Shown here: piece after piece, positions 124 to 64,000 of the stretch | Layout: each line of letters begins with the position of its first letter | Position numbering within the stretch: the stretch's first letter is position 1 | Source: Dehalococcoidia bacterium | GTDB taxonomy: Bacteria; Chloroflexota; Dehalococcoidia; JAUQQI01 | Reading direction: 5' to 3' | Assembly (NCBI GenBank): GCA_034434875.1 | Contig: DAOTYJ010000029.1 | Coordinates: 3,581 to 67,580 of the forward strand | Length of the DNA: 64,000 nt | The notes under the pieces: model-generated | Database searches by the model: none | What the model saw: only the letters and a program-made list of their open reading frames with translations | What the model was told of the DNA's origin: nothing | Position numbers and translations under genes: made by a program

Positions 124-2382
124 GTGGTCCGCAAGGCCGGGGCCGACCCCCACCGGGCCGACGACCGCTACATCGACCTGATGGCCCAGAACCGCAACCA
201 GGCCTTTGTGGTGGCCTCGGGCCTGCTTACCGGCTACGACCGTCAGCTTCTTAACCAGCTTCCGAAAGAAGGCCATCGGCTCCGGGGCACCGGCGGGGAT
301 TTTGCCTTCCAGGCCGACTCGCCCCCGTGCCGGGCGTGCCCGGCCGGCCAGCGGGGGGTCTGTGAGCAGAACCGGGCCGACCCGACCCGGAGGGCCTACG
401 ATTTCTGGCTCTACATTCCGCCGGCCCTCTTCGAGTACTGGGCCTGGTTCCACCGCCAGCTCAAGGCCGAGGAGCGGCTTGAACGGGAGCATTTTTTCAA
501 GCTGGCCACGGCCGACCCGGCCGTCCTGGAGGGGCAGGAGGGAATTACCCTCGTGGGCCTGCGGGCCGGGCCCCTGGCGGCCGGCCGGGTCCGGCTGGAG
601 CGTGCCCACCGGCTGGATACCCGGCTGCGAGAGGACGACCCCGTCCTGGTAACCCCGGCCCCCCACCGCCCCGGCCACTTCGCCTCCGTCCGGGGGGTCA
701 TCCGGCGGCTGGAGGCCTTCCACCTGGAGGTGGACCTGGACGAGCCCCACCTGCCCCCGGCCCCCGAGTACCGGGTCGACCGGGCGGGGCTGGGGGAGCG
801 GGTAGGCTGGGAAGTGGAGGCCCTGACCGACTTTATGCTCAGCGCCCTGGCCGCGGCCGGGGTGCGGGGCCGGCGGGTCCGGGAGGCCGAACTTCCGCCC
901 CTGGCCCGCACCATCCTGGGGAGCGAGAGCCCCGGGGCGCCGGCCCAGGCCGAGCCCGCCCTGGCGCCGGTTCTGGACTTGGGTCCCAGCCAGCTTGCGG
1001 CCTTAAGGGGAATTCTGGGCCTCGGGCCGGGGGAGATCCTGCTGGTCCAGGGGCCGCCGGGCACCGGCAAAACCGCCCTCATCGCCGAGGCCGTCCGCCA
1101 GCTCCTCTTTCGCCACCTCTGGGACCCCATCGACCCCGAAGACCCCCGGCCCATTCTGGTCCTGGCCAATACCCACCGGGCGGCCAACGAGGTGGTCCTC
1201 AAGCTGCTGGGGGCCTGTCCGGAGCTTGCCCCCTTCATCGTCCGGGTGGGGCGGGTGCTGGGGGGAATGGAGGCCGAGGTGGCCGCCTGCGTCCTGGCCG
1301 AGCGGGTGGGCCTCCGGGAGGCCGTCCGGGCCGGGTCCGACCTGGAGGCCCGGCTTAAAGAGTGCCTTTTCCGGGGGGCCGTCCTCCACCGCCACGCCGG
1401 CGTCTTCGTGGCCACCCTGGCGGCGGCCGCCGCCCCCGAGCTTCAGGGGCTGTCCTTTCGGTACGTCATCGTCGACGAGGCCGGCCAGGCCACCGAGCCG
1501 GCCACCCTTCAGGCCCTGCGCCGGCTCCCGGCCGACTTCGGGGGCGCCCTGGTGCTGGTGGGGGACCACTGCCAGCTCCCGCCGGTGGTGGAGGCCGCCG
1601 AGGCCCCGCCCCTTACGTCCGCGCTAGCCGCCGGACGCGGCTTTAAAGCCGGCCACAGCCTCAAAATCTCCCTCTTTGAGCGGCTGGCCGGCCGCTACCC
1701 CCAGCGCCTGGTTCGGCTTGTGGAGCAGTACCGGATGGCCCGGCCCATCTGCGAGCTGGTGGCCAACACCTTCTACGGCGGGGCGTTGCGGCCGGCCACC
1801 CCGGCCGTGGCCGACCAGCCCCCGCCCCCCGGCTTCGACCGGCACATCCTCTGGGTTCTTACGGACGGAATCCCCGGGGCCCTGGAGCAGGCGGCCGGAA
1901 TAGAGGAGGCCCGGAGCAACCCCTACGAGGCGGAGCTGGCTGCCCGGGTTGTGGTCCGGCTGGTGGGCCGCGGCCTTCCGCCCGACCGGGTCGGGGTGGT
2001 CTCCCCCTACCGGCGGCAGAACACCCAGGTCCGCCAGGCCCTGGCCGACCTCGCCCCCGGCCTGGCCGAGCAGGTCCGGGTGGATACGGTGGACCGGTTC
2101 CAGGGGGGCGAGCGGGACGCCATCGTTATAAGCCTGGCGGCCGCCAACCCCCAGCGAAACCTGGGCGAGCTCCTGGCCGACTGGCGGCGGCTGAACGTGG
2201 CCGTCTCCCGGGCCCGCCGCCTCGTGGTCATCATCGGGAGCCGGGAGACCTTAACTGAGCCGGGCCCGCTGGACACCCCCGAAGCCCGGACGGCCAAAGG
2301 CTATTACCGCCGCCTCTGGGCCGAGGTCTGCCGGCTGGCGGCCGCCGGGGCGGCCCGGGTGGTCAGGCCGGAGGCGGGGTGA
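124..2382 (+). CDS. Superfamily-1 helicase, Upf1/DNA2-like (AAA_11/AAA_12 type). The frame is open back to window position 1, so the true start may lie upstream of the window
   Basis: Walker A GPPGTGKT, motif II VIVDEAGQATEP, motif V VDRFQGGERDAIVISL, motif VI LNVAVSRAR. A ~300 aa N-terminal region with Cys cluster CRACPAGQRGVC precedes the RecA core. Confidence 0.85.
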   Translation: MVRKAGADPHRADDRYIDLMAQNRNQAFVVASGLLTGYDRQLLNQLPKEGHRLRGTGGDFAFQADSPPCRACPAGQRGVCEQNRADPTRRAYDFWLYIPPALFEYWAWFHRQLKAEERLEREHFFKLATADPAVLEGQEGITLVGLRAGPLAAGRVRLERAHRLDTRLREDDPVLVTPAPHRPGHFASVRGVIRRLEAFHLEVDLDEPHLPPAPEYRVDRAGLGERVGWEVEALTDFMLSALAAAGVRGRRVREAELPPLARTILGSESPGAPAQAEPALAPVLDLGPSQLAALRGILGLGPGEILLVQGPPGTGKTALIAEAVRQLLFRHLWDPIDPEDPRPILVLANTHRAANEVVLKLLGACPELAPFIVRVGRVLGGMEAEVAACVLAERVGLREAVRAGSDLEARLKECLFRGAVLHRHAGVFVATLAAAAAPELQGLSFRYVIVDEAGQATEPATLQALRRLPADFGGALVLVGDHCQLPPVVEAAEAPPLTSALAAGRGFKAGHSLKISLFERLAGRYPQRLVRLVEQYRMARPICELVANTFYGGALRPATPAVADQPPPPGFDRHILWVLTDGIPGALEQAAGIEEARSNPYEAELAARVVVRLVGRGLPPDRVGVVSPYRRQNTQVRQALADLAPGLAEQVRVDTVDRFQGGERDAIVISLAAANPQRNLGELLADWRRLNVAVSRARRLVVIIGSRETLTEPGPLDTPEARTAKGYYRRLWAEVCRLAAAGAARVVRPEAG

Positions 2383-2897
2383 GGCAGAGCGCCCTGGGCC
2401 GGACCCTTGAGGCCCTGCGCCGGGTGGCGGAGGCGGGGGTCGGGTGCGACTTCTGGCTGGGGCCGGAGTTCGGCCTTAAAATCGCCTGGCTCGACCGCCT
2501 CGGCCTGGCCAAAGGCTTTCGTCAGCGGGTGCCCCGCTGTGTTGAGCACCGGTGCCACCTGGCCGGAATCTGCCCCTACCAGCGGCGGTTCGACGTCGAC
2601 CGGGCGGGCATCGCCGGCCTTAAGGGTCGGCTCACCGACCTGGGCCTTGGGGTGGCCGGGGACCGGGCCGCCCTGGAAGAAGTCCTCCTGGCGGACCCGG
2701 CCGTTCGGGCCCTGCTCGGCCGCCTTGAGGCCGGGCCCGTCAGCCAGTTTGAGGTCCGCCGCTGGCTTATAGAGGCCGCCTGGTCGGAAGACGACCCCCT
2801 GGCCGCCCTCACCCCGCCCGAGGCCGGCTGGCTTCTGCGCCTGCTGGCCGACCTGGGCCGCCTGACGCTGGCCGGAGACCGGGTCGGCCGGCCCTAG
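2379..2897 (+). CDS. Hypothetical 172-aa protein, translationally coupled to the helicase (ATGA overlap). Carries a Cys/His cluster CVEHRCHLAGICPY
   Basis: ORF in a 70% GC context with ordinary amino-acid composition; 4-nt overlap with the helicase stop. Confidence 0.5.
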   Translation: MRQSALGRTLEALRRVAEAGVGCDFWLGPEFGLKIAWLDRLGLAKGFRQRVPRCVEHRCHLAGICPYQRRFDVDRAGIAGLKGRLTDLGLGVAGDRAALEEVLLADPAVRALLGRLEAGPVSQFEVRRWLIEAAWSEDDPLAALTPPEAGWLLRLLADLGRLTLAGDRVGRP

Positions 2898-5449
2898 GGC
2901 AGGGTTCCGGCCCAGATCTCGGCGGCGTCGGTCCCGTCGGGCCGGGGCAGGCGGGCCCCGGTGAGGGGGTCGTAAAGGCCCGCCAGGAGCCGGTAAGGGC
3001 CGGGGGGCGGGGCGGCGGGGACGGGGAGGGTGTGGGCATCCTCCACATATTCGCCCACCAGCCAGCGGTCGGTGGGGTGGGTCCAGTGGCGGGGCACGGC
3101 GTCGTCCTGGGCGATGGGCTGCCCGTCGGGCCCGGCCAGGTGGACGAAAACCTTGAGATTTCGGCCCACCGGGGCGTCGGCCCGCCACACCAGGGTAACG
3201 GTGAGGGGCGCGCCCGGGCGGGGCCGGTCCGGGCTTAAGGTTGCCCCCACCAGGGTCACCCCGTCCCCAAACCGGGCCCCGACCCTCACCCCGACGGGGG
3301 GCGGTTCAAACCGACGGCCTGCCGCCGGCCGGACGGCCACCGCCCCCAGCGGCCGCCCGTCCACCCGGAGGCGGACTTCCCCGGCCGCCGGAAGGGTAAG
3401 CTTAAGCCGCTGGCGGACAAAGCCGGGCCGGTCCCCCCCGGGCCCTGCCAGGGGAATCCGGTTGGCGAAACCGGACCCGATAACTTCCAGCCGCAGGTTT
3501 TCGGGTTGAGGGCCGGCCAGCCAGAGCAGTTCGATTTCGAAGGGCTCCCCGGCCGTGACCGGGCCCGGGGGGAGCCGGTAGCCGGCCAGGCCCCCGACCG
3601 GGGGCTCCAGCAGGTTAAAGCCCGCGGGCGGGGTGGGAACGGGGTTCTCGAGCCGGCCCACGGGCAGGGGGGCTTCGACGGCCCCCGTGGGCCGTCCGGC
3701 CGCCGTAAGGCCCAGAATCTCGCCGGAAGCCGCATACACCCGGACCCAGGCCGTGTAGTCTCCCGGCGGCAGGCCGGGCGGAAGCCGCAGCGGCAGGTGC
3801 TGCTCCACGACCTCGCCCGGCTCCCAGCGGTCGGCCGGCTCAAAACGGCCGTTCCGAATGGGCCGGTCGAAGACGGCCCAGACCTCCTCGGCCCCCCGGC
3901 CGAGGGCCACCCGGACGGACAGCGGCCGGGACGGGCTCCTTTCGGCCTGCCAGCGGAGGAGCAGGCCCGGGGCGTCGGCCGGCCGGGGCAGCCGGGCGTA
4001 GGCCGTCAGCCACAGGTCCGGGCCGAACCGGTAGTCGGCCGGTTGCCACTCCAGGTCGAAGGCCGGGCCCGGCCGGTAGACGGTGAGGCGCAGGCCCCCG
4101 GCCCAGCTTTCGGCCTCGCGGCTCAAGGCCGATTCCAGCAGGCCGTCGAAAAGGCCGTCGGGGTCGGTTATCACCTCCGGATTCCAGATGTACCAGACCC
4201 GGCCGGTCCGGGGGAGGTTTTCCCGGATGAACCCGAGCATCGCCTCCGGCCGGTAGGGGGTAACCGGCACGTGTCGGGCCGGGGCCGCCCCCCGGTAGTA
4301 GTACCGAAAGGGCGGGGGTACGTTGAAAAGCACCAGGTCTCCGGGCCCGGCCGCCCGGCTCACCCGGGCCACCACCGACCGGTAATCGGTCCGCCAGAAG
4401 GCCGGGTTTGTTTGCTGGGTCCAGACCGCCCCCACCCCGAGGGCCAGAAGGCCCAGGCCCGCCGGAACGCCGAAGGTCAGGCGGCCGGCCAGACTGGCGG
4501 CCAGAAGCATGGCAAGAAAGGCCATGCCGGTTAAAACATATCGGGGGTGGTAGGCCGGGGCCCGCAGGGCAATTACCAGGGGCGGAATTAGGTTAAAGGC
4601 GGTCATGACCAGGAGGGGTCGGGCCGCCGGCCTGGCCGCCCCCAGAACCAGGGCCGGAATGAGGGCGGCCCCGGGGAGCAGAAGATAAGGATTAAAGCCC
4701 TCCCGGGGGGCCCCGGCCGCCCCCAGCCCCAGCCAGAAGAACTCCCAGGTCCAGCGCAGCCGCAGGAGGGGGTCGGGGGGCAGGGCGAAGGGCGCCCCCC
4801 AGCCCAAAACCTTCGGGATAAGGCCCGAGGCCCAGGGAATGAGGGCGAGGCCCACCGCCCCCAGCCACCCCCACGGCCGGCGCCGGGCTGTGAGGACCAG
4901 GGCCGCCTGGCCCAGCAGAGCGAAGATGTAATAATAAAACGTAAACAGGCCGACGACCGTAAGGCCGGCCCAGGCCGCCCAGCCCCACCGTCCGGGCGGC
5001 CGCAGTAAGAGGGCCGTCGAGAGGGCCGCCAGCGCGGCCGCCGGGGCAAACATCCGGGCCTCCCGGGCGTAGTAAACCAGGGGCGGGGCCGCCCCCAGAA
5101 GGCCCAGCCCGAAAATCAGCCCGGCCGGCCCCGCCGCCCGCCGACACAGGTAGCCCCCGGCCGCCACCAGGACCATCCCGGCCAGGACCGAAAGATAGCG
5201 GAGGGCAAATTCGCCGTTGCCGGCCGCCTGTCCCCAGAAGTGGAGGGCCAGGTAGTAAGCAGGGGGGTGGTTTTCGGCCTCGGCCGAGCCCGTGGCCCGA
5301 TTGTCCCCCCGCAGGATGTCGGCCGGGGGCCCGGCGGCCAGGAGGGCGCTGTAGGCCTCGTCCCACCAGAAGGATTCCCGGTCGAGGCCGTGGACCCGGA
5401 GGGCAAAGGCGGCCGCCAGCAAAAGAAGGGGTAAAAGCCGCCGCGCCAC
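2894..5449 (-). CDS. GT-C fold glycosyltransferase, family 39-like (PMT/ArnT-type polyprenyl-phosphate-sugar dependent), with a ~450 aa C-terminal extracytoplasmic repeat domain
   Basis: N-terminal polytopic region with the first-loop acidic motif ESFWWDEAYSA typical of GT39/GT83; C-terminal internally repeated ~110-aa modules. Confidence 0.7.
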   Translation of the reverse strand: MARRLLPLLLLAAAFALRVHGLDRESFWWDEAYSALLAAGPPADILRGDNRATGSAEAENHPPAYYLALHFWGQAAGNGEFALRYLSVLAGMVLVAAGGYLCRRAAGPAGLIFGLGLLGAAPPLVYYAREARMFAPAAALAALSTALLLRPPGRWGWAAWAGLTVVGLFTFYYYIFALLGQAALVLTARRRPWGWLGAVGLALIPWASGLIPKVLGWGAPFALPPDPLLRLRWTWEFFWLGLGAAGAPREGFNPYLLLPGAALIPALVLGAARPAARPLLVMTAFNLIPPLVIALRAPAYHPRYVLTGMAFLAMLLAASLAGRLTFGVPAGLGLLALGVGAVWTQQTNPAFWRTDYRSVVARVSRAAGPGDLVLFNVPPPFRYYYRGAAPARHVPVTPYRPEAMLGFIRENLPRTGRVWYIWNPEVITDPDGLFDGLLESALSREAESWAGGLRLTVYRPGPAFDLEWQPADYRFGPDLWLTAYARLPRPADAPGLLLRWQAERSPSRPLSVRVALGRGAEEVWAVFDRPIRNGRFEPADRWEPGEVVEQHLPLRLPPGLPPGDYTAWVRVYAASGEILGLTAAGRPTGAVEAPLPVGRLENPVPTPPAGFNLLEPPVGGLAGYRLPPGPVTAGEPFEIELLWLAGPQPENLRLEVIGSGFANRIPLAGPGGDRPGFVRQRLKLTLPAAGEVRLRVDGRPLGAVAVRPAAGRRFEPPPVGVRVGARFGDGVTLVGATLSPDRPRPGAPLTVTLVWRADAPVGRNLKVFVHLAGPDGQPIAQDDAVPRHWTHPTDRWLVGEYVEDAHTLPVPAAPPPGPYRLLAGLYDPLTGARLPRPDGTDAAEIWAGTLP

Positions 5450-5457
5450 CCGCCGGG

Positions 5458-6702
5458 CTAGGTTCGGGGCAGCCAGAGGCCGCCCGGGGTCCGGCCGGGC
5501 GGCTCCGCCTCGGCCTCGGGCCCCTCGTGGGCCGGCACCCAGAGGCCCAGCTCTTCGGCCCGGGTTCGGGCCTCGGCCGGCAGGGTTGCCCCCAGGGCCG
5601 TCCCGACCAGGGCCTGAAGGAGGGGGATCCGGGCCGGGTCCTGGCCCGGGTCGGCTAGGGCCAGGGCCGCCGCTAGGACGCGTTTCGCCGTAAGCGGCCG
5701 GTCGGCCCGGGCATACAGAAGGGCCAGGTCCTCCAGGGCCCCCACCCGCACCTGCCGCACCTCTGGCCTATCGTCGAAAAGGGCCCGGACCGCCCGGCCG
5801 ACCAGGTCGGCCCACCGGCGCCGGTGGGTTTCCTCGTCAAGGAGCACCTGGGTTCCCGCCAGGTTGCGGGCTTCCCGGCTGAAATCCCTTAAAAGGCGGG
5901 GGACGATGAACCAGTGCCAGAGGTGGGGCTCGTCGGACACCACCTGGTTGGACTCGTCGAGGTACTGGGGGTTGAGCCGCACCTCGGCGCGGTTGACCAG
6001 GCGGTAAACGGGGTGCTCTGAGAACTCCCGGCGGGGCCGGCCGATTCGTTCCAGCCAGGCCGCGGCCGCCGGGGAGAGGGCGGCCCCACCCCGCCGATTC
6101 CAGAGGATATCCCGGGCCTCGTCCGGCTCCAGCTCGAAAAGCTCCAGGTCGGCTTCGGCCGCCGCCCGACGAAGCTTCTCCAGTTCGGCCTCGAGCCGCC
6201 CCACCACACTCGCCCGGTGTCCCACGTCGACCCCGCGGGGGCTGAGGCCGAAGGCCACCACATCCAGGCCCCCGACGGCCCCCCGCACCAGCAGGATCAG
6301 CTCCCGGGCCCGCTCGAGGGTTACCGGGGTCGAGAAGGCCCGCAGGACCGGGTCGGCGGCCTCCGTCGGCCGGACCCGGGGCGCCGGCCGTCCCCCGACC
6401 CGGAAAAGCTCCCGCCGGACCTGTTTAAGCCGCTCCCTGGGAAGGTCGGCCCCGGCCAGGGCGCTTAAAACCGCCGCGGCCCCCGGACTGCCCCGCAGCG
6501 CCCCCAGCAGCCGGCCGAAGGCGGCCGGGTCCCCGGCCAGCTCCACGGCCAGCCGGACCAGCCCCTCCGGGTTCGAAACCGCGAGCTCCCGGACAACCGC
6601 ATCAAATTCCTCGGGCCCGAGCCGCCCGAGGCGGCGGGCCGCCTCCGGGTAGAGCTTAAAGCTTAAAAGTTCGGCGACTTCGGCCACCCGCCCTGACCCC
6701 AC
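5458..6702 (-). CDS. Hypothetical protein embedded in the glycosylation operon
   Basis: 414-aa ORF, 8 nt upstream of the GT39 start, same strand; no family recognised. Confidence 0.45.
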   Translation of the reverse strand: MGSGRVAEVAELLSFKLYPEAARRLGRLGPEEFDAVVRELAVSNPEGLVRLAVELAGDPAAFGRLLGALRGSPGAAAVLSALAGADLPRERLKQVRRELFRVGGRPAPRVRPTEAADPVLRAFSTPVTLERARELILLVRGAVGGLDVVAFGLSPRGVDVGHRASVVGRLEAELEKLRRAAAEADLELFELEPDEARDILWNRRGGAALSPAAAAWLERIGRPRREFSEHPVYRLVNRAEVRLNPQYLDESNQVVSDEPHLWHWFIVPRLLRDFSREARNLAGTQVLLDEETHRRRWADLVGRAVRALFDDRPEVRQVRVGALEDLALLYARADRPLTAKRVLAAALALADPGQDPARIPLLQALVGTALGATLPAEARTRAEELGLWVPAHEGPEAEAEPPGRTPGGLWLPRT

Positions 6703-6705
6703 CGC

Positions 6706-7521
6706 CTAGGCCTCCCGAAATTCCCGGACGGGGACGGTCCGGGCCAGCCTCGGGCCGAGCACGGGAACCTTGCCGACCAGCTGGGGAAATACCAGCTCGA
6801 ACCAGAGGTGGGCCAGCTGGATGAGGGTGCGTTTGACCCGCCGGAAGTTGAAAAACTGCGACCGGCCGTAGGCCCGGTGGTAGTGGTGGACCGGCACCTC
6901 GGCCAACCCGAAGCCGGCGTCCTGGACTTTTTTCATAAGTTCGACGCAGATTACCCCGCTGTCGGACTTAAGGTTAATCTTGTCAAAGATGCTTCGGCGC
7001 ATCAGCCTGAAGTCGCAGTCGACGTCTTTAAGCTTAAGGCCGAAGGCAAACTTGACCACATATTGATAAATTCGGCCGATAATGACCCGGTGGAGGGGGT
7101 CGTGCCGCTCGATCTTCCAGCCGTTTACCAGGTCGACCCCTTCCCGAAGGGCCGGCAGGAGCAGTTTAAGCTCCCGGGGGTCGTACTGGGCGTCGCCGTC
7201 GGTGTAGAAGATCAGCTCCTTGGTGCAGGCGGCAAACCCGGTTCGGAGGGCCGCCCCGTAGCCCAGGTTCTTAGGGTGGTGGACCACCCGCAGGCAGTCG
7301 TAGAGCCGGGCGAGCTCCTCAAGGACCTCGGCGGTGTGGTCTTCGCTCCCGTCGTTCACGACGATGACCTCGTAATCGTCCGTAAGCTCCCGCAGGGTCC
7401 GGACGGCGGTCACCACCATGGAGGCGATGGTGCCGGCGTCGTTGTAGGCCGGAAAGAAAACCGAAATGCCCGGCGGCCGGGATTCTGCGGTCATCTGCCC
7501 AGAAAATATTACCCAAATCAA
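6706..7521 (-). CDS. GT2 polyprenyl-phosphate mannose/glucose synthase (DPM1/Ppm1-like)
   Basis: Motifs VNDGSEDHT, GYGAALRTGF, DGDAQYDPRE; ~250 aa single-domain GT2 of the dolichol-phosphate-mannose synthase type. Confidence 0.75.
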   Translation of the reverse strand: MIWVIFSGQMTAESRPPGISVFFPAYNDAGTIASMVVTAVRTLRELTDDYEVIVVNDGSEDHTAEVLEELARLYDCLRVVHHPKNLGYGAALRTGFAACTKELIFYTDGDAQYDPRELKLLLPALREGVDLVNGWKIERHDPLHRVIIGRIYQYVVKFAFGLKLKDVDCDFRLMRRSIFDKINLKSDSGVICVELMKKVQDAGFGLAEVPVHHYHRAYGRSQFFNFRRVKRTLIQLAHLWFELVFPQLVGKVPVLGPRLARTVPVREFREA

Positions 7522-9740
7522 TTAGCTCCCACAACTACCCGACCCAGAACCGCAAACGACGCCCCGCCGGCCGTAAGGTTGCGCCGGCCGTCGGAAAGGC
7601 GGTAAAGGCCGGCAACCAGGTAGTAGTCCCCGGGCGGGAGGTCCGGGGGCAGGCTGATGACGGCCGCATCCGCAAAGCGGTCGCCCGGGGCCCACTGGTA
7701 GGTGGGCAGAAGCCCCCCGGCCGGCCTGAAGTCGGCCTGGGCGGCCGGAACCGTCCCGGGCGCCGGCACCAGGTGAACAAAAACCTGCCAGTCTTCGGTA
7801 GGCTTGCCGGCCGCCGACCAGTAAAGCGTTACCCGCAGGTCCCCGCCCGGGGCCAGCGGCCCCGCCGGCAGGTCGGCCCCCACGAGAACTATCCCATCCC
7901 GAAAGGCCGCGCCGAGGGGCCGGGCGGGCGGGACCGTCGGGGGTGGGGGCGGGGCGGTCTTCTCCACCGTGAGCCGGCCCAGGGAAAGGGTCTCCTCCCC
8001 GGCCTGGAAGGCCCAGGCGTAGTCGCCCGGGGGCAGGCCGGGGAAAACCGTAAGGCTTACCAGCTCGGGGCCGGGTTCCCCGGAAGGGCCCAGCTCCCAG
8101 ACCTGCCGGACCCGGCCCGCCGGGTCGATGAGCCCGACCCGGGCCTCCTCCCCGCCCGGCCTCCGGTAGATGACGAGATAAACCCGGTCGTCGGGGCCGG
8201 CCCGTCCGACCGGCGGGTCGTAGCCGAAAAGGCCGGCCGGGCCGTCGACCCGGACCTCCGGCTCAAGGCGGACCGGCCGGGGCGGTCGGCCGGCCGGGTC
8301 GAAGAGGACGGCCCCGTTGTGGCCGAAGCTGAACCGGGCCGCCTCCGGAAGCCGCCCCTTTAGGTGGGCCTGGACCTCCCCGGAAGGGTCTTCGATGGCC
8401 GGCTCCATAAGCACCAGCCAGAGCCTCCCGCCCCCCGAAGCCGCCCCCTCGACCTCAGACCGCCAGGCCGGGTCGGCCCGGGGCGAAACGGGCAGGACCC
8501 GGGTGCCCCCCAGGCCGGCCCGGCGGGCGTAGTACTCGAAGATGGGCAGCCGGTCGCCCGAAACCAGGATAAGCCGGTCTCCCGGGGAGACGTAAGCCCG
8601 GAGGACCCGAAAGAGGGTAACGTAGTCGTCGGTGAGCCGCCGCCCGTCAAGGTACTGCCAGGTGCCCAGCAGGAGCAGTCCGAGAAGCCCCGGCCCCAAC
8701 CCGAAGGCCAGGGGGCGGGGCCGGGCGGAGGCGGCCGAAGCCAGCCCCAGCCCGAGCAGGGGCACGGCCGGCAGAAAATAGCGGGGGTCGTAGACCGGCA
8801 CGTAGCCGAAGGGCCGGGGAAGGAGCACCAGGACGCCGAGGCCGGCGGCCAGAAGAAAGCCGGCCCCGAAGCGGCGGCCCCCGGGGTGGGCCAGGCTCCC
8901 CAGAAGGCAAACGACCAGGGCTCCGGCGGCCAGGGGCCAGAGGCCGTCGGGGCCGCCCCGCCCCAGCAGGAGGCCCCCGGGCACGGCCCGGAACACCTCG
9001 GGCAGGGGGGTGGGCGGCCCGGCGGCCCAGCTCCGCTGCCGGGTAAGGGCAAACCCCACCCAGGGCCCCAAAAGGCCGAGGGTTCCGAGGCTGGCTAAAA
9101 TCCAGGCCCGGCCCCGTTCCCCCCGCCAGAGCCAGAGGCCCGAAACCAGGGGCAGTACGGCGGCCGGGTAGAGGGTGAAGGCGGCCCCAAAGAGGCCGGC
9201 GGCGTAGCCGGCCAGATAAGCCCGGCGGGGCTTAAGGTCCGTAAGGTAGCGGTGGCCGAAGTAGAGGCCCACCAGGCCGAAGGTGACCCCCGGGGCGTGC
9301 ATCCGGACCTCCTGCGACCACCAGATATGGAGGGGGTTTAAGCCTAAAAAGAGGGCCGCCCAGAGGCCCCCGGCCGGGCCGATGGCCCGCCGGCCCAGGC
9401 TTGCGGCCACGGCTACGGCCGGGACCGAGAGCAGGACGGTAAGAAACCGCAGGCCGAAGGGTTCGCCCCCGGCCAGGGGCTCCCAGAGGCCGAGGAGCCA
9501 GTAGTAGAGGGGCGGGTGGGTATCGGCGGCGGTACGGAGGGCGGCGCCCACCGGCCCGAGGCGGGCGATTTGCAGGGCAAAGGCCTCATCGTACCAGATG
9601 TTGTGGTCGCCCAGCCGAAAGACCCGCAGGCCGAAGGCGAGGGCCACCACCCCGAGGCCCATTGACACCCCCGGTCCGGTCCGGCTAAGATCGTGCCGGG
9701 CCAGGAGAGGCCCAAATCTTGCCCGGAGCTGATGCCACAT
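7518..9740 (-). CDS. Second GT39-like membrane glycosyltransferase with a C-terminal repeat domain. The start is probably an internal Met near 9662
   Basis: Loop motif NIWYDEAFALQIA; polytopic N-terminus; C-terminal module resembling those of the ORF at 2894-5449. Confidence 0.7.
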   Translation of the reverse strand: MWHQLRARFGPLLARHDLSRTGPGVSMGLGVVALAFGLRVFRLGDHNIWYDEAFALQIARLGPVGAALRTAADTHPPLYYWLLGLWEPLAGGEPFGLRFLTVLLSVPAVAVAASLGRRAIGPAGGLWAALFLGLNPLHIWWSQEVRMHAPGVTFGLVGLYFGHRYLTDLKPRRAYLAGYAAGLFGAAFTLYPAAVLPLVSGLWLWRGERGRAWILASLGTLGLLGPWVGFALTRQRSWAAGPPTPLPEVFRAVPGGLLLGRGGPDGLWPLAAGALVVCLLGSLAHPGGRRFGAGFLLAAGLGVLVLLPRPFGYVPVYDPRYFLPAVPLLGLGLASAASARPRPLAFGLGPGLLGLLLLGTWQYLDGRRLTDDYVTLFRVLRAYVSPGDRLILVSGDRLPIFEYYARRAGLGGTRVLPVSPRADPAWRSEVEGAASGGGRLWLVLMEPAIEDPSGEVQAHLKGRLPEAARFSFGHNGAVLFDPAGRPPRPVRLEPEVRVDGPAGLFGYDPPVGRAGPDDRVYLVIYRRPGGEEARVGLIDPAGRVRQVWELGPSGEPGPELVSLTVFPGLPPGDYAWAFQAGEETLSLGRLTVEKTAPPPPPTVPPARPLGAAFRDGIVLVGADLPAGPLAPGGDLRVTLYWSAAGKPTEDWQVFVHLVPAPGTVPAAQADFRPAGGLLPTYQWAPGDRFADAAVISLPPDLPPGDYYLVAGLYRLSDGRRNLTAGGASFAVLGRVVVGAN

Positions 9741-16979: not shown

Positions 16980-17103
16980 CGGCGGAAGGCTGGGCGTCCG
17001 GCATGCCGGCCGGTTTTGACACCGCCCCGATTTTGGGTTAAGCTTAGGTCTAGAGTTAAGCAATCTTAAATATGGGCGGCTGCGCCGGAAGGAGCAGGCG
17101 CCC

Positions 17104-18441
17104 GTGGCCGACAACGCCGACCTTCCTAAGCCGGTCCGGCCCTCCCGCTGGTGGGAGCTTCTCGACGATGCCTCCACCCAGGATGTGGTCAGGGCCGTGG
17201 TCCTGGGCCGGGCCCGGTTGCCCCTCTGGAGGCGGTTGCTTGCCTTCCTCGGCCCGGCCTTCGTCGCCTCCGTCGCCTACATGGACCCCGGAAACTTCGC
17301 CACCAACATCTCGGCCGGGGCCCAGTACGGCTACATGCTCCTCTGGGTGGTGGTGATGAGCAACCTGATGGCCATGCTCATCCAGTCCCTCTCGGCCAAA
17401 CTGGGCATCGCCACCGGCCGGAGCCTCCCCGAGCTTATCCGGGACCATTTTCCCCGCCCCCTGGTGCTCTTCCTGTGGGTGGTTGCCGAGCTGGTGGCGA
17501 TGGCCACCGACCTGGCCGAGTTCCTCGGGGCGGCCCTGGGGCTCAACCGGCTTTTCGGCGTCCCGATGTTTCCGGCGGCCCTCATCACCGGCGTCCTCGC
17601 CTTTTTGATATTGAGCCTGGAGCATTACGGTTTCCGGCCCCTCGAGGCCGTCATCACCCTGTTCGTCGGGGTTATCGCCCTCTGCTATTTCGTCGAGGTC
17701 GCCTTCTTTGCCCACCCCGATTGGGGGGAGGTCGGGCTGGCGGTCATCCGGCCGCGGCTTACGGACCCCGAGAGCGTACTGCTGGCCGTCGGGATCCTGG
17801 GGGCCACGGTTATGCCCCACGTTATCTACCTGCACTCGGCCCTGACCCAGGGCCGGGTGGTGGTTCAGGGCGACGCCGCCAAGCGGCTGATTTTTCAATA
17901 CGAGGTGTTGGATGTTATCCTGGCAATGGGAATTGCCGGCCTGATCAACGGGGCGATGCTCATTATGGCGGCGGCGACCTTTCACCCGAGCGGCTACCAC
18001 GAGCTCACGGAGCTTACGGATGCTTACCTGACCCTGCGGCCGCTGCTCGGGCCGCTGGCCGCAACGGTCTTTGCCATCTCCCTCCTGGCTTCGGGCCTCT
18101 CGTCGTCGACGGTGGGTACCATGGCCGGGCAGGTTATCATGCAGGGGTTTCTCCGGCGCCAAATCCCCATCTGGGTGCGCCGGCTGGTTACGATGGTCCC
18201 GGCCATCGCGGTGATCGGGGCCGGGTTTGACCCGACCCGGACCCTGGTCATAAGCCAGGTTGTTTTATCCTTTGGGATTCCCTTCGCCCTGGTCCCCCTC
18301 ATCATCTTCACCCGCCGCCGGGAGCTGATGGGCCCCCTCGTCAACTCCCGCCTGACCACGGTCCTGGTGGGCGTCGTTGCCCTCGTCATCGTCGGCCTTA
18401 ACCTCTTTCTCCTTTACCGCACCCTGACCGAGGGCCTATGA
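17104..18441 (+). CDS. mntH: NRAMP-family Mn2+/Fe2+ transporter
   Basis: TM1 signature AYMDPGNFATNISAGAQYGYMLLWVV plus ~11 TM helices. Confidence 0.9.
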   Translation: MADNADLPKPVRPSRWWELLDDASTQDVVRAVVLGRARLPLWRRLLAFLGPAFVASVAYMDPGNFATNISAGAQYGYMLLWVVVMSNLMAMLIQSLSAKLGIATGRSLPELIRDHFPRPLVLFLWVVAELVAMATDLAEFLGAALGLNRLFGVPMFPAALITGVLAFLILSLEHYGFRPLEAVITLFVGVIALCYFVEVAFFAHPDWGEVGLAVIRPRLTDPESVLLAVGILGATVMPHVIYLHSALTQGRVVVQGDAAKRLIFQYEVLDVILAMGIAGLINGAMLIMAAATFHPSGYHELTELTDAYLTLRPLLGPLAATVFAISLLASGLSSSTVGTMAGQVIMQGFLRRQIPIWVRRLVTMVPAIAVIGAGFDPTRTLVISQVVLSFGIPFALVPLIIFTRRRELMGPLVNSRLTTVLVGVVALVIVGLNLFLLYRTLTEGL

Positions 18442-30478: not shown

Positions 30479-31276
30479 ATGTCTGAGTTCCAGGATATTA
30501 TTTACGAGAAAAAAGAAGGCGTGGCCTTTGTTAGGATAAACCGTCCGCAGGTGCTTAATGCTTTCAGGCCCCTTACAATTGAGGAGATGCGGGCGGCGTT
30601 TCTGGATGCCTGGTACGACGATCAGGTCGGGGTGGTGGTTCTGACCGGGACCGGGGGAAACTTCTGCGTGGGGGGCGACGTGAAGGTCCGGGGTGGGGGC
30701 GGCTACGTGGATACGGCCGGACGGCCTCGACTCCAGGTAACCCACCTGCACCGGCTCATCCGGGAGATTCCGAAGCCGGTCATCGCCATGGTGGACGGCT
30801 ACGCCATCGGCGGCGGCCATGTCCTCCACGTCCTGTGCGACCTGACCATCGCGTCCACCCGGGCCGTCTTCGGGCAGGTCGGCCCCAAGTTCGGCAGCTT
30901 TGACGCCGGCTTCGGGGCGATTTACCTGGCCCGAATTGTGGGCGAGAAAAAGGCCCGGGAGATCTGGTACCTCTGCCGGCAGTACACCGCCCAAGAGGCC
31001 CTGGAAATGGGGCTGGTGAACAAGGTGGTGCCGCCCGAGGAGCTCGAAGAGGAAGTGATGCGCTGGGCCCGGGAGCTTCTTAAGCGGAGCCCCACGGCCC
31101 TGCGATTCTTAAAGCACGCCTTTAACGCCGATACCGACCACGTCTACGGCATTCAGAACCTGGCCCACGGGGCTACCTCCCTGTTCTACCTGACCGAGGA
31201 GTGCCAGGAGGGAACCCGGGCCTTTCTCGAAAAGCGGGAGCCCGATTACTCCCGCTTCCGGTTCCACCCGTGGTAA
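30479..31276 (+). CDS. menB: 1,4-dihydroxy-2-naphthoyl-CoA synthase
   Basis: Crotonase fold with the MenB-specific …[62 protein letters not shown]. Confidence 0.9.
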
Positions 31277-32166
31277 TGGGGTTTTGGGGGCGAATTAAAC
31301 CCTGGTTGCTGGCCAGCCGGCCTTTCAGCCTGACGGCATCGGTGGCACCGGTTCTGGTCGGTTCGGCCCTCGCCTTTAGGGCCGGGGCGTTCGATTGGGG
31401 AAGGTTTGGGCTGGTGCTGGTCGGGGCGGTGCTGGTTCAGGTCGGGACCAACCTGGTGGATGAGTACGCCGACCACCTGCGGCCGGCGGGACAGTATAAA
31501 CTGGCGGCGCCTTATAAGGTTATCGCCCGGGGCCTGCTTTCGCCGGGGCAGGTTCGGGCCGGGGCCCTGGCCGCCTTCGGCCTGGCAACGGCCATCGGCC
31601 TCTACCTGGTTCTGGCCGCCGGCTGGGGTCTGCTCGCCTTGTGTCTGGCCAGCCTGGCCGCGGCCTACCTCTACGCCGGCGGCCCTAAACCCCTGGGCGA
31701 CCTGGGCCTCGGCTGGCCCCTGGTTTTTACCTTTATGGGCCCGGTGATGGTTGCGGGGGCTTACTACGCTCAGGTGGGGGGCTTTTCGGCCGAAGCCTGG
31801 GCTTTCGGGGTGCCCGTGGGCTTTCTGGTGACGGCAATCCTGGCGGCCAACGACCTGCGAGACCATGAAGAAGACCTGGCCGCCGGCCGGGCGACGCCGG
31901 TGGTGCGGTTCGGCTTCGGGTTCGGCCGTCTGGCCTGGACATTCCTGACGGGCGGGGCTTTTATCAGCCAGGGGATTCTGGCTTTGGGCACTGGGCCGGC
32001 CCTGCTTCTGCCGCTGGCGGCGGTACCGCCGGCCTTTCAGACGGCCCGGCGCGTCTGGTCGGCCCGAACCCGGCCGGAGCGGGCGGTGATTTTGCCCCGG
32101 ACGGCGGCCCTGCATGGCTGGTTCGGCTTGCTTACGGCCGTTGCGGTCTTAGTAAGAAGCAGCTAA
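31276..32166 (+). CDS. menA: 1,4-dihydroxy-2-naphthoate polyprenyltransferase (UbiA superfamily)
   Basis: UbiA-type 8-TM protein with NDLRDHEEDLAAGRAT motif; TAATG overlap with menB. Confidence 0.8.
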   Translation: MGFWGRIKPWLLASRPFSLTASVAPVLVGSALAFRAGAFDWGRFGLVLVGAVLVQVGTNLVDEYADHLRPAGQYKLAAPYKVIARGLLSPGQVRAGALAAFGLATAIGLYLVLAAGWGLLALCLASLAAAYLYAGGPKPLGDLGLGWPLVFTFMGPVMVAGAYYAQVGGFSAEAWAFGVPVGFLVTAILAANDLRDHEEDLAAGRATPVVRFGFGFGRLAWTFLTGGAFISQGILALGTGPALLLPLAAVPPAFQTARRVWSARTRPERAVILPRTAALHGWFGLLTAVAVLVRSS

Positions 32167-36048: not shown

Positions 36049-37348
36049 GGAGGCTTTTTGGGGGGTTCGGCTGAACATTCGGGGACGCAGCGTGGTCCTG
36101 TACGGCCTGAGGCGGCCCCTGCCCGGTTTTCTTGGCTGGGTCCTAGTCTTAGGCCCGGGCATCATCGCCGCCTGCGCCGGGAACGATGCCGGTGGCATCG
36201 CCACCTACAGCTAGGTGGGTGCCCGGTTCGGCTACGACTTTCTTTGGCTGCTGGTGCCTATAACCGCGGCCCTGATGGTTATTCAAGAAACTTGCGCCCG
36301 GATTGGGGCCGCGACCGGGCGGGGTCTGCTGGACCTGGTCCGGGAGGTCTTCGGCCTGGGCTGGTCGCTGTTTGCGGTGGGGCTTGTGGCCATTGCCAAC
36401 GCCGGGCTTGCGGTGAGCGAGTTTTTGGGCATCGGGGCGGCGGCCGACCTTCTGGGCATCAGCCCCTACCTGGCGGCGCCCCTGACCGCCGGCCTTATCT
36501 GGTACCTGGTCGTCCACGGAAGCTACCGGTCGGTGGAGAAGATTTTCATTGGGATGGCCCTCGTTTTCCTGGCCTATCCGGCCTCGGCGGTTATAGCCGG
36601 GCCCGACTGGTCGGAAGTTGTCCGGGGGCTGGTGCCCCGGGTTCGGTTGGAGCCGGAGTTTCTGGCGATGGCCGTTGCCCTACTGGGGACAACCATTACC
36701 CCGTACATGCAGGTTTTCCAGCAGGGTTCGGTGGTTGATAAGGGTGTGAGCCGGGCCCGCTCCGGTCCGTAGCGGGCGGATGCTTACCTGGGGTCGGCGA
36801 TTTCAAACCTGGTTTCGGTATTTATTATCGTTGCCACCGCCGCAACCCTCTATGGGTCGGGAACCGGGGTGGAAAGCGCCGCGGATGCGGCCCGGGCCCT
36901 GCGGCCGGTGGCGGGGGATGCGGCTGAGGTCCTGTTCGCCGTCGGACTGTTTGGGGCGTCGGCCCTGGCCGCGGGAGTTCTGCCCCTGGCCACCGCCTAC
37001 GCCGTAAGCGAAACTTTCGGCCTGCCGAAAGGGGTGGACCTGGATTTCCGGCGGGCACCGGTCTTTCTCTGGACCTTCACCGGCCTCATCGGTTTCGCGG
37101 GGGGTGTGCCCTTAATCCCCGGTCTGCCCGTTATCGACCTGCTGGTCAGGTTGCAGGTGCTCAACGGCCTGCTTTTGCCGGCTGTGTTATTCTTCGTCCT
37201 CCGCTTGGCCAACAACCCGAAACTGATGGGCAGGCTTAAAAATAAGCGGACCGAGAACGCCGTGGGCTGGGGAAGCCTCGGGCTTATATCCCTGGCGGCG
37301 GGAAGCTACCTGGCCGCCCAGCTTGGGTCTATCCTCGGGCCCGGCTAG
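36049..37348 (+). pseudogene. NRAMP-family-like divalent cation transporter, immediately downstream of the MgtE_N-CBS gene, with two in-frame TAG codons
   Basis: …LGPGIIAACAGNDAGGIATYS*VGARFGYDFLWLL… parallels Nramp TM1 DPGNFATNISAGAQYGY, with the TAG at the conserved Gln position. Second TAG at ~36770 within …SRARSGP*RADAYLGSAISNLVSVFII…. The C-terminal half 36869-37348 is in the same frame. Confidence 0.65.
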
Positions 37349-44800: not shown

Positions 44801-44824
44801 GCCAGTTAAGAGGGGTTGAAAGCG

Positions 44825-45568
44825 ATGCGTCGGTTTCCCAAGGCATCGATAATCATCCGCGCCAAGAACGAGGAGCGGGATATCGGCCTGACCCTTTCGA
44901 TGGTTTTCCGCCAGCGGATGCGGGACTTTGAAGTGATAATCGTGGATTCGGGGTCGACCGACCGGACTTTAGAGGTCGCCCGGCGGTTTCCGGTGAAAAT
45001 CATCGAAATCCCGCCGGAAAGGTTCACTTACGGCCGGGCCCTCAACATCGGCATCGCCGCCTCCCGGGGCGAGTACCTGGTCTGCCTGAGCGCCCACGCC
45101 ATCCCCGCCGACGAGGAGTGGCTGGGCAACCTCCTTTCCGGCTTCGACGACCCGGAGGTTGCCGGGGTCTACGGCATGCAGATCCCCCGGCCCAACTGCA
45201 ATTTCCTCGAGGTGGTCGGCCTGGCCCTGGAGGGGACGAACAGCCCGTATCCCCGCCTTCAGCGGCGGGGCCGCTCCAACTTCTCCAACGCCAACAGCGC
45301 CATCCGAAGGACCCTCTGGGTTCGGGTGCCCTTCGACGAGACCCTTTCGGGGGCCGAGGATTTCGCCTGGGCCAAGCAGGTGCAGGAGCTGGGCTACCTG
45401 ATAAAATACGAGCCTACCGCCCGGGTCTATCACTCCCACGGGGGGCCGGTTTTCAAGATCATGCGCCGGGCCGTCCGGGACTTTACCACCCGGCTGGCCG
45501 TCACCGTCGGGCTTCTGGCGACCAAGCCGCCGGTGCTCTACTACCCGCCCCGGCCGGAGGCCGAGTAG
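44825..45568 (+). CDS. GT2 family glycosyltransferase
   Basis: SIIIRAKNEERDIGLTLSMVFRQ…EVIIVDSGSTDRT… with DxD-type motifs. Confidence 0.8.
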   Translation: MRRFPKASIIIRAKNEERDIGLTLSMVFRQRMRDFEVIIVDSGSTDRTLEVARRFPVKIIEIPPERFTYGRALNIGIAASRGEYLVCLSAHAIPADEEWLGNLLSGFDDPEVAGVYGMQIPRPNCNFLEVVGLALEGTNSPYPRLQRRGRSNFSNANSAIRRTLWVRVPFDETLSGAEDFAWAKQVQELGYLIKYEPTARVYHSHGGPVFKIMRRAVRDFTTRLAVTVGLLATKPPVLYYPPRPEAE

Positions 45569-63695: not shown

Positions 63696-63720
63696 CGCTA
63701 AAAAGTTAACACAAACGGGT

Positions 63721-63750
63721 TTGACAAGCCTGGGCAGGCGTCCATATATT
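63721..63750 (+). promoter_or_regulatory. Candidate promoter TTGACA-N18-TATATT
   Basis: Seen directly, 10 nt upstream of the ATG at 63761. Confidence 0.45.
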
Positions 63751-63760
63751 GCCGATTGGG

Positions 63761-64000
63761 ATGGGTACGACGGAGCGGGAAGAGCTTCTGGCCGAAATCG
63801 AGCGGCTCCGGGCCGAGAACGAGCGGCTTAAGGCCCAGATCGAGGGCGAGCTTATCCGCCGCATCGCCCAGCTGAACGCCCTCCACCGGGTTAATGCCGC
63901 CGCCAACAGCTCCCTCAACCTGGACGAGATGCTCCGCCTTACCGTCCACACCGTCAACGAGGTGATGCGCACCGACGCCTGCTCCGTCTACCTGTTCGAG
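63761..64000 (+). CDS. GAF-domain-containing protein, N-terminal part (continues beyond the window)
   Basis: Coiled-coil EELLAEIERLRAENERLKAQIEGE followed by a GAF-like segment …LDEMLRLTVHTVNEVMRTDACSVYLF. Confidence 0.5.
   Translation, partial: MGTTEREELLAEIERLRAENERLKAQIEGELIRRIAQLNALHRVNAAANSSLNLDEMLRLTVHTVNEVMRTDACSVYLFE

Follow-up and report, generated by a model that had tools for sequence, protein, structure and literature searches.

The general mechanism of multi-component glycosylation systems has been established (PMC11127046, PMC8035078), and in the described three-component systems, such as GtrB/GtrA/GtrC, CsbB/GtcA/YfhO and GacI/GacL, the gene of a synthase of glycosyltransferase family 2 (GT2) lies beside genes of membrane glycosyltransferases of the GT-C fold class, which act outside and carry an acidic motif in their first external loop. 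The same logic of synthase plus GT-C transferase recurs in actinobacterial Ppm1/Pmt, in ArnC/ArnT (GT2/GT83, lipid A aminoarabinose), in Gtr and CsbB/YfhO, and in streptococcal Pgf. Here we describe a locus from an uncultured hot-spring lineage of Chloroflexota (Dehalococcoidia bacterium, GenBank assembly GCA_034434875.1, contig DAOTYJ010000029.1, forward-strand positions 3,581 to 67,580; this whole stretch of 64 kb is the window, and positions below refer to it), in which four co-directional open reading frames (ORFs), GTC1, GT2, HYP and GTC2, are packed tightly on the minus strand. In our view, to which we give a probability of roughly 0.7, the locus encodes a module for extracytoplasmic glycosylation that depends on a polyprenyl-phosphate sugar and belongs to the widespread multi-component ('three-component') kind. 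Little is understood about the envelopes of Chloroflexota, whose genomes carry many GT-C genes of the PMT_2 type without known substrate; the locus, i.e. a GT2 without transmembrane (TM) helices plus two paralogous GT-C enzymes, is a compact set that could reveal which sugar this GT-C class uses in thermophilic Chloroflexota, and on which acceptor, while the current view of how such systems work is left unchanged. The four genes are as follows.

7518-9740, minus strand: GTC1, maximal ORF of 740 amino acids (aa); predicted GT-C membrane glycosyltransferase, PMT_2 type.
6706-7521, minus strand: GT2, maximal ORF of 271 aa; predicted polyprenyl-phosphate glycosyltransferase without membrane helices.
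5458-6702, minus strand: HYP, 414 aa; predicted cytoplasmic protein.
2894-5449, minus strand: GTC2, 851 aa; predicted second GT-C membrane glycosyltransferase, paralogue of GTC1.

An earlier, sequence-only reading of this DNA had described four co-directional genes with short spacers or overlaps, and this arrangement holds: GT2 and HYP are separated by 3 nt, HYP and GTC2 by 8 nt, and at the GTC1/GT2 junction there is either a 4-nt overlap (GT2 start TTG 7521) or a 23-nt spacer (ATG 7494). The latter start, giving 262 aa, is the one called in relatives, including an identical contig, and is probably the right one. All four genes code for protein and evolve under purifying selection: compared with the orthologues in a related contig (L001), to which they show 69-86% amino-acid identity, the ratios of nonsynonymous to synonymous substitution rates (dN/dS) are 0.31 for GTC1, 0.10 for GT2, 0.27 for HYP and 0.24 for GTC2, so that GT2 is the most constrained of the four.

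Of the two large proteins, GTC1 matches the Pfam model PF13231 (PMT_2), which the sequence-only reading had proposed as a check, at 44.9 bits (1.8e-11), above the gathering cut-off of 26.1. By sequence, GTC2 is clearly paralogous to GTC1 (BLASTP E 9e-15, with 29% identity over 513 aa) and has about 8 hydrophobic segments; the second C-terminal repeat of GTC1 and the final 112 aa of GTC2 share 42% identity. An AlphaFold2 (AF2) model of GTC1, built from an alignment of 21 sequences, reached a mean predicted local distance difference test score (pLDDT) of 84.8 and a predicted template modelling score (pTM) of 0.77. The best fold match of this model in the PDB (Foldseek) is ArnT of Cupriavidus metallidurans (5ezm; E 6.7e-9, target TM-score 0.56, 16% identity), followed by STT3, ALG12, ALG9, Pmt4 and DPY19, and from the model we assign a GT-C fold to GTC1 with confidence. 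At the sequence level, phmmer searches of the PDB with GTC1 and GTC2 gave no matches, and the family profile found only non-significant GT-C matches there. In NCBIfam the large proteins obtained just one faint, sub-threshold match (TIGR03663). The features of the membrane portions are given below.

8646-9674, minus strand: GTC1 membrane domain, residues ~23-365, placed by hydropathy, AF2 helices (multiple TM plus juxtamembrane) and the structural alignment with ArnT over 590 columns.
9585-9590, minus strand: GTC1 Asp51-Glu52 (740-aa numbering) in WYDEAF, putative catalytic/metal-binding acidic motif, located where the first extracytoplasmic loop begins.
5357-5362, minus strand: GTC2 Asp30-Glu31 in WWDEAY, after the first membrane helix, aligned with Asp51-Glu52 of GTC1.

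The Asp-Glu motif, which the sequence-only reading had pointed out in both large proteins, is indeed present in each; in GTC1 it is placed after the first membrane helix by AF2 and is invariant among the 21 aligned homologues. The same alignment shows invariance of the two prolines of HPPLYY, of R98, of R146-M147 and of Y191, the HPPLYY and QExRMY motifs as a whole being invariant or nearly so. On the basis of sequence and model, then, both proteins are paralogous membrane glycosyltransferases of the GT-C class, PMT_2 branch, with a presumed catalytic activity.

The window also encodes a third, giant GT-C-like membrane protein (59397-63827, minus strand), whose ORF of 1477 aa contains about 19 hydrophobic segments and in which a PMT_2 domain (1e-8, residues 152-260) is combined with DUF2298 (1e-119, residues 752-1260).

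Beyond the membrane portion, each large protein carries a long C-terminal repeat domain, as had been noticed from the sequence. It was resolved by the AF2 model (GTC1) and by profile hidden Markov models (HMMs; both proteins) into an alpha/beta domain that is followed by two beta-sandwiches in GTC1 and by three in GTC2.

8280-8588, minus strand: GTC1 alpha/beta ectodomain, residues 385-487 (AF2 model).
7944-8252, minus strand: GTC1 beta-sandwich repeat 1, residues 497-599 (AF2 strands, HMM domain matches, Foldseek).
7530-7931, minus strand: GTC1 beta-sandwich repeat 2, residues 604-737 (AF2, HMM cross-matches).
4058-4345, minus strand: GTC2 alpha/beta ectodomain, residues 369-464 (HMM from the alpha/beta domain of the GTC1 family, 1.4e-27).
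2906-4045, minus strand: three GTC2 beta-sandwiches, residues 469-609, ~616-712 and 718-848 (HMM, 2.4e-24, 1.9e-5 and 1.2e-46).

The sandwich repeats of the two proteins are homologous to each other, because both sandwich profiles cross-match, and those of GTC2 were also seen as multiple alignment registers in BLASTP. The fold matches of the GTC1 sandwiches comprise the FnIII domain of RbmA, transglutaminase and the MG domains of complement C3, and no Pfam family was found for the isolated ectodomains of either protein at E<=10. By analogy with the topology of ArnT the ectodomains would be extracytoplasmic. These tandem beta-sandwich ectodomains without annotation and the probably co-transcribed HEAT-repeat protein discussed below are the less ordinary aspects of the locus, and the former set the window enzymes apart from the described three-component systems, whose transferases are of the GtrC or YfhO type and not of the PMT_2 type.

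In the case of GT2, the match to PF00535 is strong (2.7e-30), and the best sequence matches in the PDB, i.e. ArnC (8e-21), Pyrococcus DPMS (1e-12) and Synechocystis GtrB (1e-11), are all polyprenyl-phosphate glycosyltransferases. The alignment with ArnC (residues 9-224 against 9-221) spans the whole catalytic domain and extends to the end of the soluble part of ArnC, whose final portion, up to residue 221, we take to be the 'interface helices'; the alignment with DPMS covers residues 10-214 against 25-231, whereas with unrelated GT2 enzymes, chondroitin synthase for example, the alignment stops at about residue 133. The catalytic signature is located as follows.

7192-7200, minus strand: GT2 DXD motif Asp-Gly-Asp, residues 99-101 (262-aa form), aligned to Asp-Ala-Asp of ArnC (HMMER).

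A search for a membrane anchor found no hydrophobic 19-mer in GT2 at or above the threshold of 1.5. ArnC, GtrB and CsbB have TM helices at the C-terminus, whereas the catalytic domains of DPM1 and of actinobacterial Ppm1 are devoid of them, and in its architecture GT2 resembles this TM-less DPM1/Ppm1 type rather than ArnC or GtrB. The sequence-only reading had described GT2 as a DPM1/Ppm1-like synthase; by sequence, ArnC is a better match than DPMS. The scores of GT2 against the NCBIfam equivalogs are nowhere near the respective cut-offs (ArnC 84.9 against 529 bits; PgfS 78.6 against 500; PpgS 62.7 against 370; Dol-P-hexose transferase 57.4 against 375 bits). Judged by its homologues, GT2 is most likely of the cytoplasmic polyprenyl-phosphate-sugar synthase type.

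Elsewhere in the window there is a second small GT2 (44810-45565, plus strand; PF00535 4e-24) as well as a prenyltransferase of the UbiA family (31126-32163, plus strand), neither of which lies beside a GT-C gene.

That the best solved relatives of both components, ArnC for GT2 by sequence and ArnT for GTC1 by fold with the periplasmic alpha/beta domain included, belong to one and the same system raises the question whether the GT-C pair transfers sugar to the head group of a membrane lipid or lipoglycan, in an ArnC/ArnT-like manner. We consider such a lipid modification very unlikely: the identity with ArnT is low, the tandem beta-sandwiches have no counterpart in ArnT, neither an ArnT nor an ArnC equivalog of NCBIfam is reached, and there are no neighbours of the arnA/B/D/E/F type. 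Moreover, Chloroflexota of the type of the host are generally considered to be without lipopolysaccharide. The ArnT lipid A system proper was rejected as a candidate on account of the missing arn genes and the scores far below the equivalog cut-offs. The sequence-only reading had itself allowed that genuine ArnT-type transferases in a conserved lipid-modification neighbourhood, or a missing Asp-Glu motif, would speak against it; what was found is a motif in place, and neither an ArnT equivalog nor arn-type neighbours.

The same evidence bears on the specific proposal of the sequence-only reading, namely that the locus follows the genetic logic of actinobacterial protein O-mannosylation. According to this explanation GT2 would make polyprenyl-phosphate-mannose, with which GTC1 and GTC2 would O-mannosylate serine and threonine residues of secreted proteins, as in the Ppm1/Pmt system, which shares with the window the TM-less synthase architecture, a GT-C enzyme with the Asp-Glu motif in loop 1 and the catalytic logic. 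The match of GT2 to Pyrococcus DPMS and the presence of both an HPPL-type motif and the Asp-Glu motif agree with it, as does the fact that some homologues of the family match PF02366, the model of the genuine GT39 protein mannosyltransferases; GTC1 and GTC2, however, do not match this model at E<=0.1. With the family profile Pmt2 is found at E 0.4 and TMEM260 at 0.019, the solved Pmt1, Pmt2 and Pmt4 show no significant similarity in sequence, Pmt4 ranks only 15th among the folds similar to GTC1, and for GT2 it is ArnC, not DPMS, that comes first. A best template of the ArnT type does not by itself speak against protein acceptors, as ArnT is the best template for the human TMTC O-mannosyltransferases as well (PMC7801869), and streptococcal systems of GT2 plus GT-C do glycosylate proteins (PMC12041528). 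Nevertheless, relatives of the locus reside in polysaccharide-type clusters, no gene for a Ser/Thr-rich substrate was seen beside the operon, and the phylum is a different one. Actinobacteria have a single Pmt, a protein of ~500 aa, whereas the window encodes two paralogues with ectodomains of ~370-500 aa. Taken together, O-mannosylation appears unlikely. What stands of the proposal is the general logic of synthase plus GT-C transferase, of which Ppm1/Pmt is one example and not a specific match.

The assignment of both large proteins to GT39 found no support either, given that PF13231 is the only one of the two models to match, above its cut-off in GTC1 alone, and that the best fold is ArnT. 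'GT39' is the name that NCBI attaches to some PMT_2-matching homologues, and what is corrected here is likely an over-annotation, as 'glycosyltransferase family 39' labels on PMT_2 matches do not establish protein O-mannosylation.

Under the preferred explanation, that of a multi-component glycosylation module, homology suggests that the TM-less GT2 would move a monosaccharide from a nucleotide sugar to polyprenyl phosphate at the cytoplasmic face of the membrane, after which a flippase, presumably encoded outside the operon, would carry the lipid-linked sugar across. For both GT-C enzymes this sugar would then serve as the donor, at an active site that surrounds the invariant Asp-Glu pair in external loop 1, and they would glycosylate one or two extracytoplasmic acceptors; here the fold and the motif are observed, while activity, donor and acceptor are conjectured. 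The ArnT-like alpha/beta domain and the tandem beta-sandwiches probably bind or position the acceptors. The latter could be a surface or secreted protein, a glycan of the wall or the S-layer, or a lipid. We lean slightly towards a glycan or another envelope polymer, because the neighbourhoods of relatives are glycan clusters: one of them (L007) consists of Bac_transf, two GT4 genes, two unannotated ORFs (514 and 556 aa), a GT-C homologue and then a GT2, and in another (L059) a GT4 comes after the GT-C.

Of the best 80 related GT-C loci in the genome collection, 79 are from Chloroflexota, mostly Anaerolineae, Thermoflexia, Caldilineae and Ardenticatenales. At the species level the nearest homologue of GTC1 is found in a metagenome-assembled genome (MAG) labelled Dehalococcoidia bacterium A0_31 (85% identity), and the nearest match in a named cultured organism is that of Thermoflexus hugenholtzii (36%). 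The module reading is supported by distant Chloroflexota, in which GT2 and GT-C genes are found paired independently. In two loci (L059 and L062) TM-less orthologues of GT2 (40-41% identity, ~250 aa, hydropathy peaks 0.93-0.94) lie directly upstream of GT-C genes that are 26-27% identical, and in three others (L055, L075 and L020) TM-anchored GT2s adjoin the GT-C homologues. In L055 (2682-12790, an Anaerolineae MAG) a GT-C (967 aa), a GT-C-like protein (611 aa), an LPG_synthase_TM protein (324 aa), a GT2 of 371 aa that bears TM helices at its C-terminus, and a further GT-C (972 aa) follow each other. This is a complete set of synthase, flippase-like protein and transferase for the GT-C family of GTC1, and it shares the flippase-like gene with the described three-component systems. 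The duplication of the GT-C gene, on which the sequence-only reading had remarked, is not peculiar to the window: two or more GT-C ORFs are present in 15/80 of these Chloroflexota loci, which implies that tandem paralogues are common in the phylum.

Several observations weigh against the module as we read it. In contrast to the three-component systems, no flippase gene was found in or near the operon: the LPG_synthase_TM protein of L055, used as phmmer query, has no match in the 64-kb window, and a scan of nine TM-rich window ORFs and the second GT2 revealed no GtrA-type family. GTC2 by itself remains below the cut-off of PF13231 (E 0.013, 16.2 bits against 26.1). None of the proteins reaches an NCBIfam equivalog cut-off, which would have named the sugar. 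A GT2 is near the GT-C in only 7/80 related loci (many of those contigs being short), which implies that for many members of the GT-C family the donor is supplied by a gene elsewhere in the genome, and the adjacency of GT2 and GT-C in the window could thus be partly incidental. Finally, although all related contigs inspected (L001-L005 and L017) keep the order of the four genes, synteny between the window and its close relatives extends over more than 20 kb, and for this reason their conservation says little about functional coupling.

The remaining gene, HYP, has no Pfam or NCBIfam match, in line with the earlier statement that its product belongs to no recognisable family. A word-indexed search found only seven clusters (76-100% identity) and a profile of HYP likewise retrieved close relatives only. 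An exhaustive profile search, however, yielded 73 remote homologues of ~400 aa with 18-28% identity, and many of these carry an N-terminal HEAT_2 domain (PF13646), which is found in 12/33 of the aligned family members but has no match in HYP itself; the absence of any recognisable relationship was thus not sustained. The possibility that HYP is a spurious ORF in high-GC DNA was discarded on the basis of the remote homologues and of its dN/dS. The N-terminus is unlike a signal peptide, and the one hydrophobic stretch (residues 135-153) is placed in beta strands and not in a TM helix by AF2. The structure prediction, which had been suggested as a check for this product, gave a model with pLDDT 87.7, for which no solved structural relative was found. 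The model has four parts: residues 1-101 form a HEAT-like domain, residues 119-220 a domain of four strands plus a helix and residues 231-384 a helical domain, while the tail is disordered (pLDDT <50 from residue 395). Conserved motifs in the family are RKxARRxLxRL, VYxxxxxxEVRxNPxxLxxS and RRLEEMAY...ARxALAAAxAL, and to these is added a short motif at the very end.

5464-5478, minus strand: HYP C-terminal motif Leu-Trp-Leu-Pro-Arg, after a low-confidence linker.

In the alignment of 33 members, most sequences terminate with the pattern hydrophobic-x-hydrophobic-Pro (LWLPR, LILPR, LELPY and similar) behind a disordered linker, and this pattern looks like a short docking motif for some partner. 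As a separate observation, residues 119-220 of HYP (6043-6348, minus strand) show a weak, non-significant likeness to Pur-alpha (PUR repeat), a nucleic-acid-binding fold (Foldseek E ~0.4, probability 0.85, 71 columns).

Such a docking motif on a protein of the helical-repeat scaffold type invites the explanation that all four genes form one unit, in which HYP would act in the cytoplasm as their dedicated adaptor or regulator and hold the TM-less GT2 at the membrane or at the GT-C enzymes, by analogy with DPM2/DPM3 for DPM1 or Ppm2 for Ppm1. The spacers of just 3 and 8 nt on either side of HYP, the preservation of the arrangement in all relatives that have a HYP at >=76% identity, and the lack of a membrane anchor in GT2 are what one might expect in this case. 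The wider context of the family points elsewhere: none of the eight distant HYP homologues whose surroundings were inspected (L008, L011, L013-L015 and L097-L099) adjoins a GT2 or a PMT_2-type GT-C (0/8), even though one of them (L097) is divergent to a GT4/GT87/Wzy_C cluster. Conversely, the TM-less GT2 orthologues of L059 and L062 are paired with a GT-C in loci without HYP. One distant homologue is located near DprA-topoisomerase I (L098) and another near BBE oxidases (L097); in relatives of the window locus the same two kinds of gene lie beside it as well, and this suggests an inherited place and not recruitment. We therefore regard a four-gene unit as quite unlikely, and the idea, contained in the sequence-only reading, that HYP is embedded in the glycosylation system finds no echo in these contexts. 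HYP is probably co-transcribed with the glycosyltransferases in the lineage of the host, but most likely it was present in this part of the chromosome before them and has a cytoplasmic role of its own; since the eight distant contexts are without a GT2 or PMT_2-type GT-C neighbour, what connects it with glycosylation is the probable co-transcription in a single lineage. A more far-reaching version, in which HYP would be a new kind of cytoplasmic partner that recruits or regulates the TM-less GT2 at the membrane or at the GT-C pair via its helical scaffold and Leu-x-Leu-Pro tail, and in which the ectodomains would define a Chloroflexota-wide GT-C class with a new acceptor, seems to us equally improbable.

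The composition of the locus as a whole is reminiscent of the Pgf operon for protein glycosylation of Streptococcus mutans (pgfS, pgfM1, pgfE and pgfM2; PMC5856776, PMC12041528), which likewise consists of four genes, i.e. one GT2, two GT-Cs and one soluble protein, and GT2 shows a partial match to the NCBIfam PgfS model (4.7e-22). PgfM1 and PgfM2, however, are GT-Cs of the YfhO type, unlike the PMT_2-type enzymes of the window, and the fourth Pgf gene encodes an epimerase, whereas the fourth window gene encodes a HEAT-repeat protein without enzyme signature.

Housekeeping genes flank the locus, which places it on the chromosome: one side has EF-P, an M24 peptidase, dehydroquinase, topoisomerase I and DprA, the other a helicase-nuclease. 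The alternative of an island that is mobile or was inserted horizontally was considered and rejected in view of these neighbours and their conserved synteny; tRNA and Rfam scans of the window gave no match. The G+C content of the region is 71-76%, with a dip to 0.645-0.667 at 6501-8000, over the GT2 gene and the 3' end of GTC1. Convergent with GTC2 there is a conserved gene block (124-2897, plus strand; 13819-19630 in L001) that comprises a protein of 1088 aa combining a PDDEXK nuclease with an SF1 helicase (truncated at the window start), a 172-aa protein, a 285-aa protein and a Memo-like protein. The 172-aa and 285-aa proteins are without family, and the former is translationally coupled and its stop overlaps the stop of GTC2 by 4 nt.

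At the other end of the locus there is a divergent gamma-glutamyltranspeptidase gene that starts at 9739, so that a GTC1 start at ATG 9740 would overlap with it. Gene callers in relatives place the start of GTC1 ~75 nt downstream, at GTG 9668 or ATG 9662, which probably is the correct position and gives a protein of ~714 aa, while the N-terminal extension of 26 residues is conserved in two relatives, with a 3-nt indel that keeps the frame. The 76-nt gap between the two genes (9662-9739) that results from the shorter form holds a sigma-70-like element on the plus strand (TTGACA-18-TAAGAT) that faces the transpeptidase gene and is kept in L001 (as TAAAAT) and in L017. The same DNA can thus be read as a promoter-like element or as a conserved 26-residue extension of GTC1.

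Further along the window, two adjacent ORFs (36215-36769 and 36773-37345, both on the plus strand) match positions 8-190 and 203-356 of the Nramp profile and look like one gene that is broken by an in-frame stop, be it a pseudogene, a sequencing error or a case of recoding; an intact Nramp gene is present at 17020-18438.

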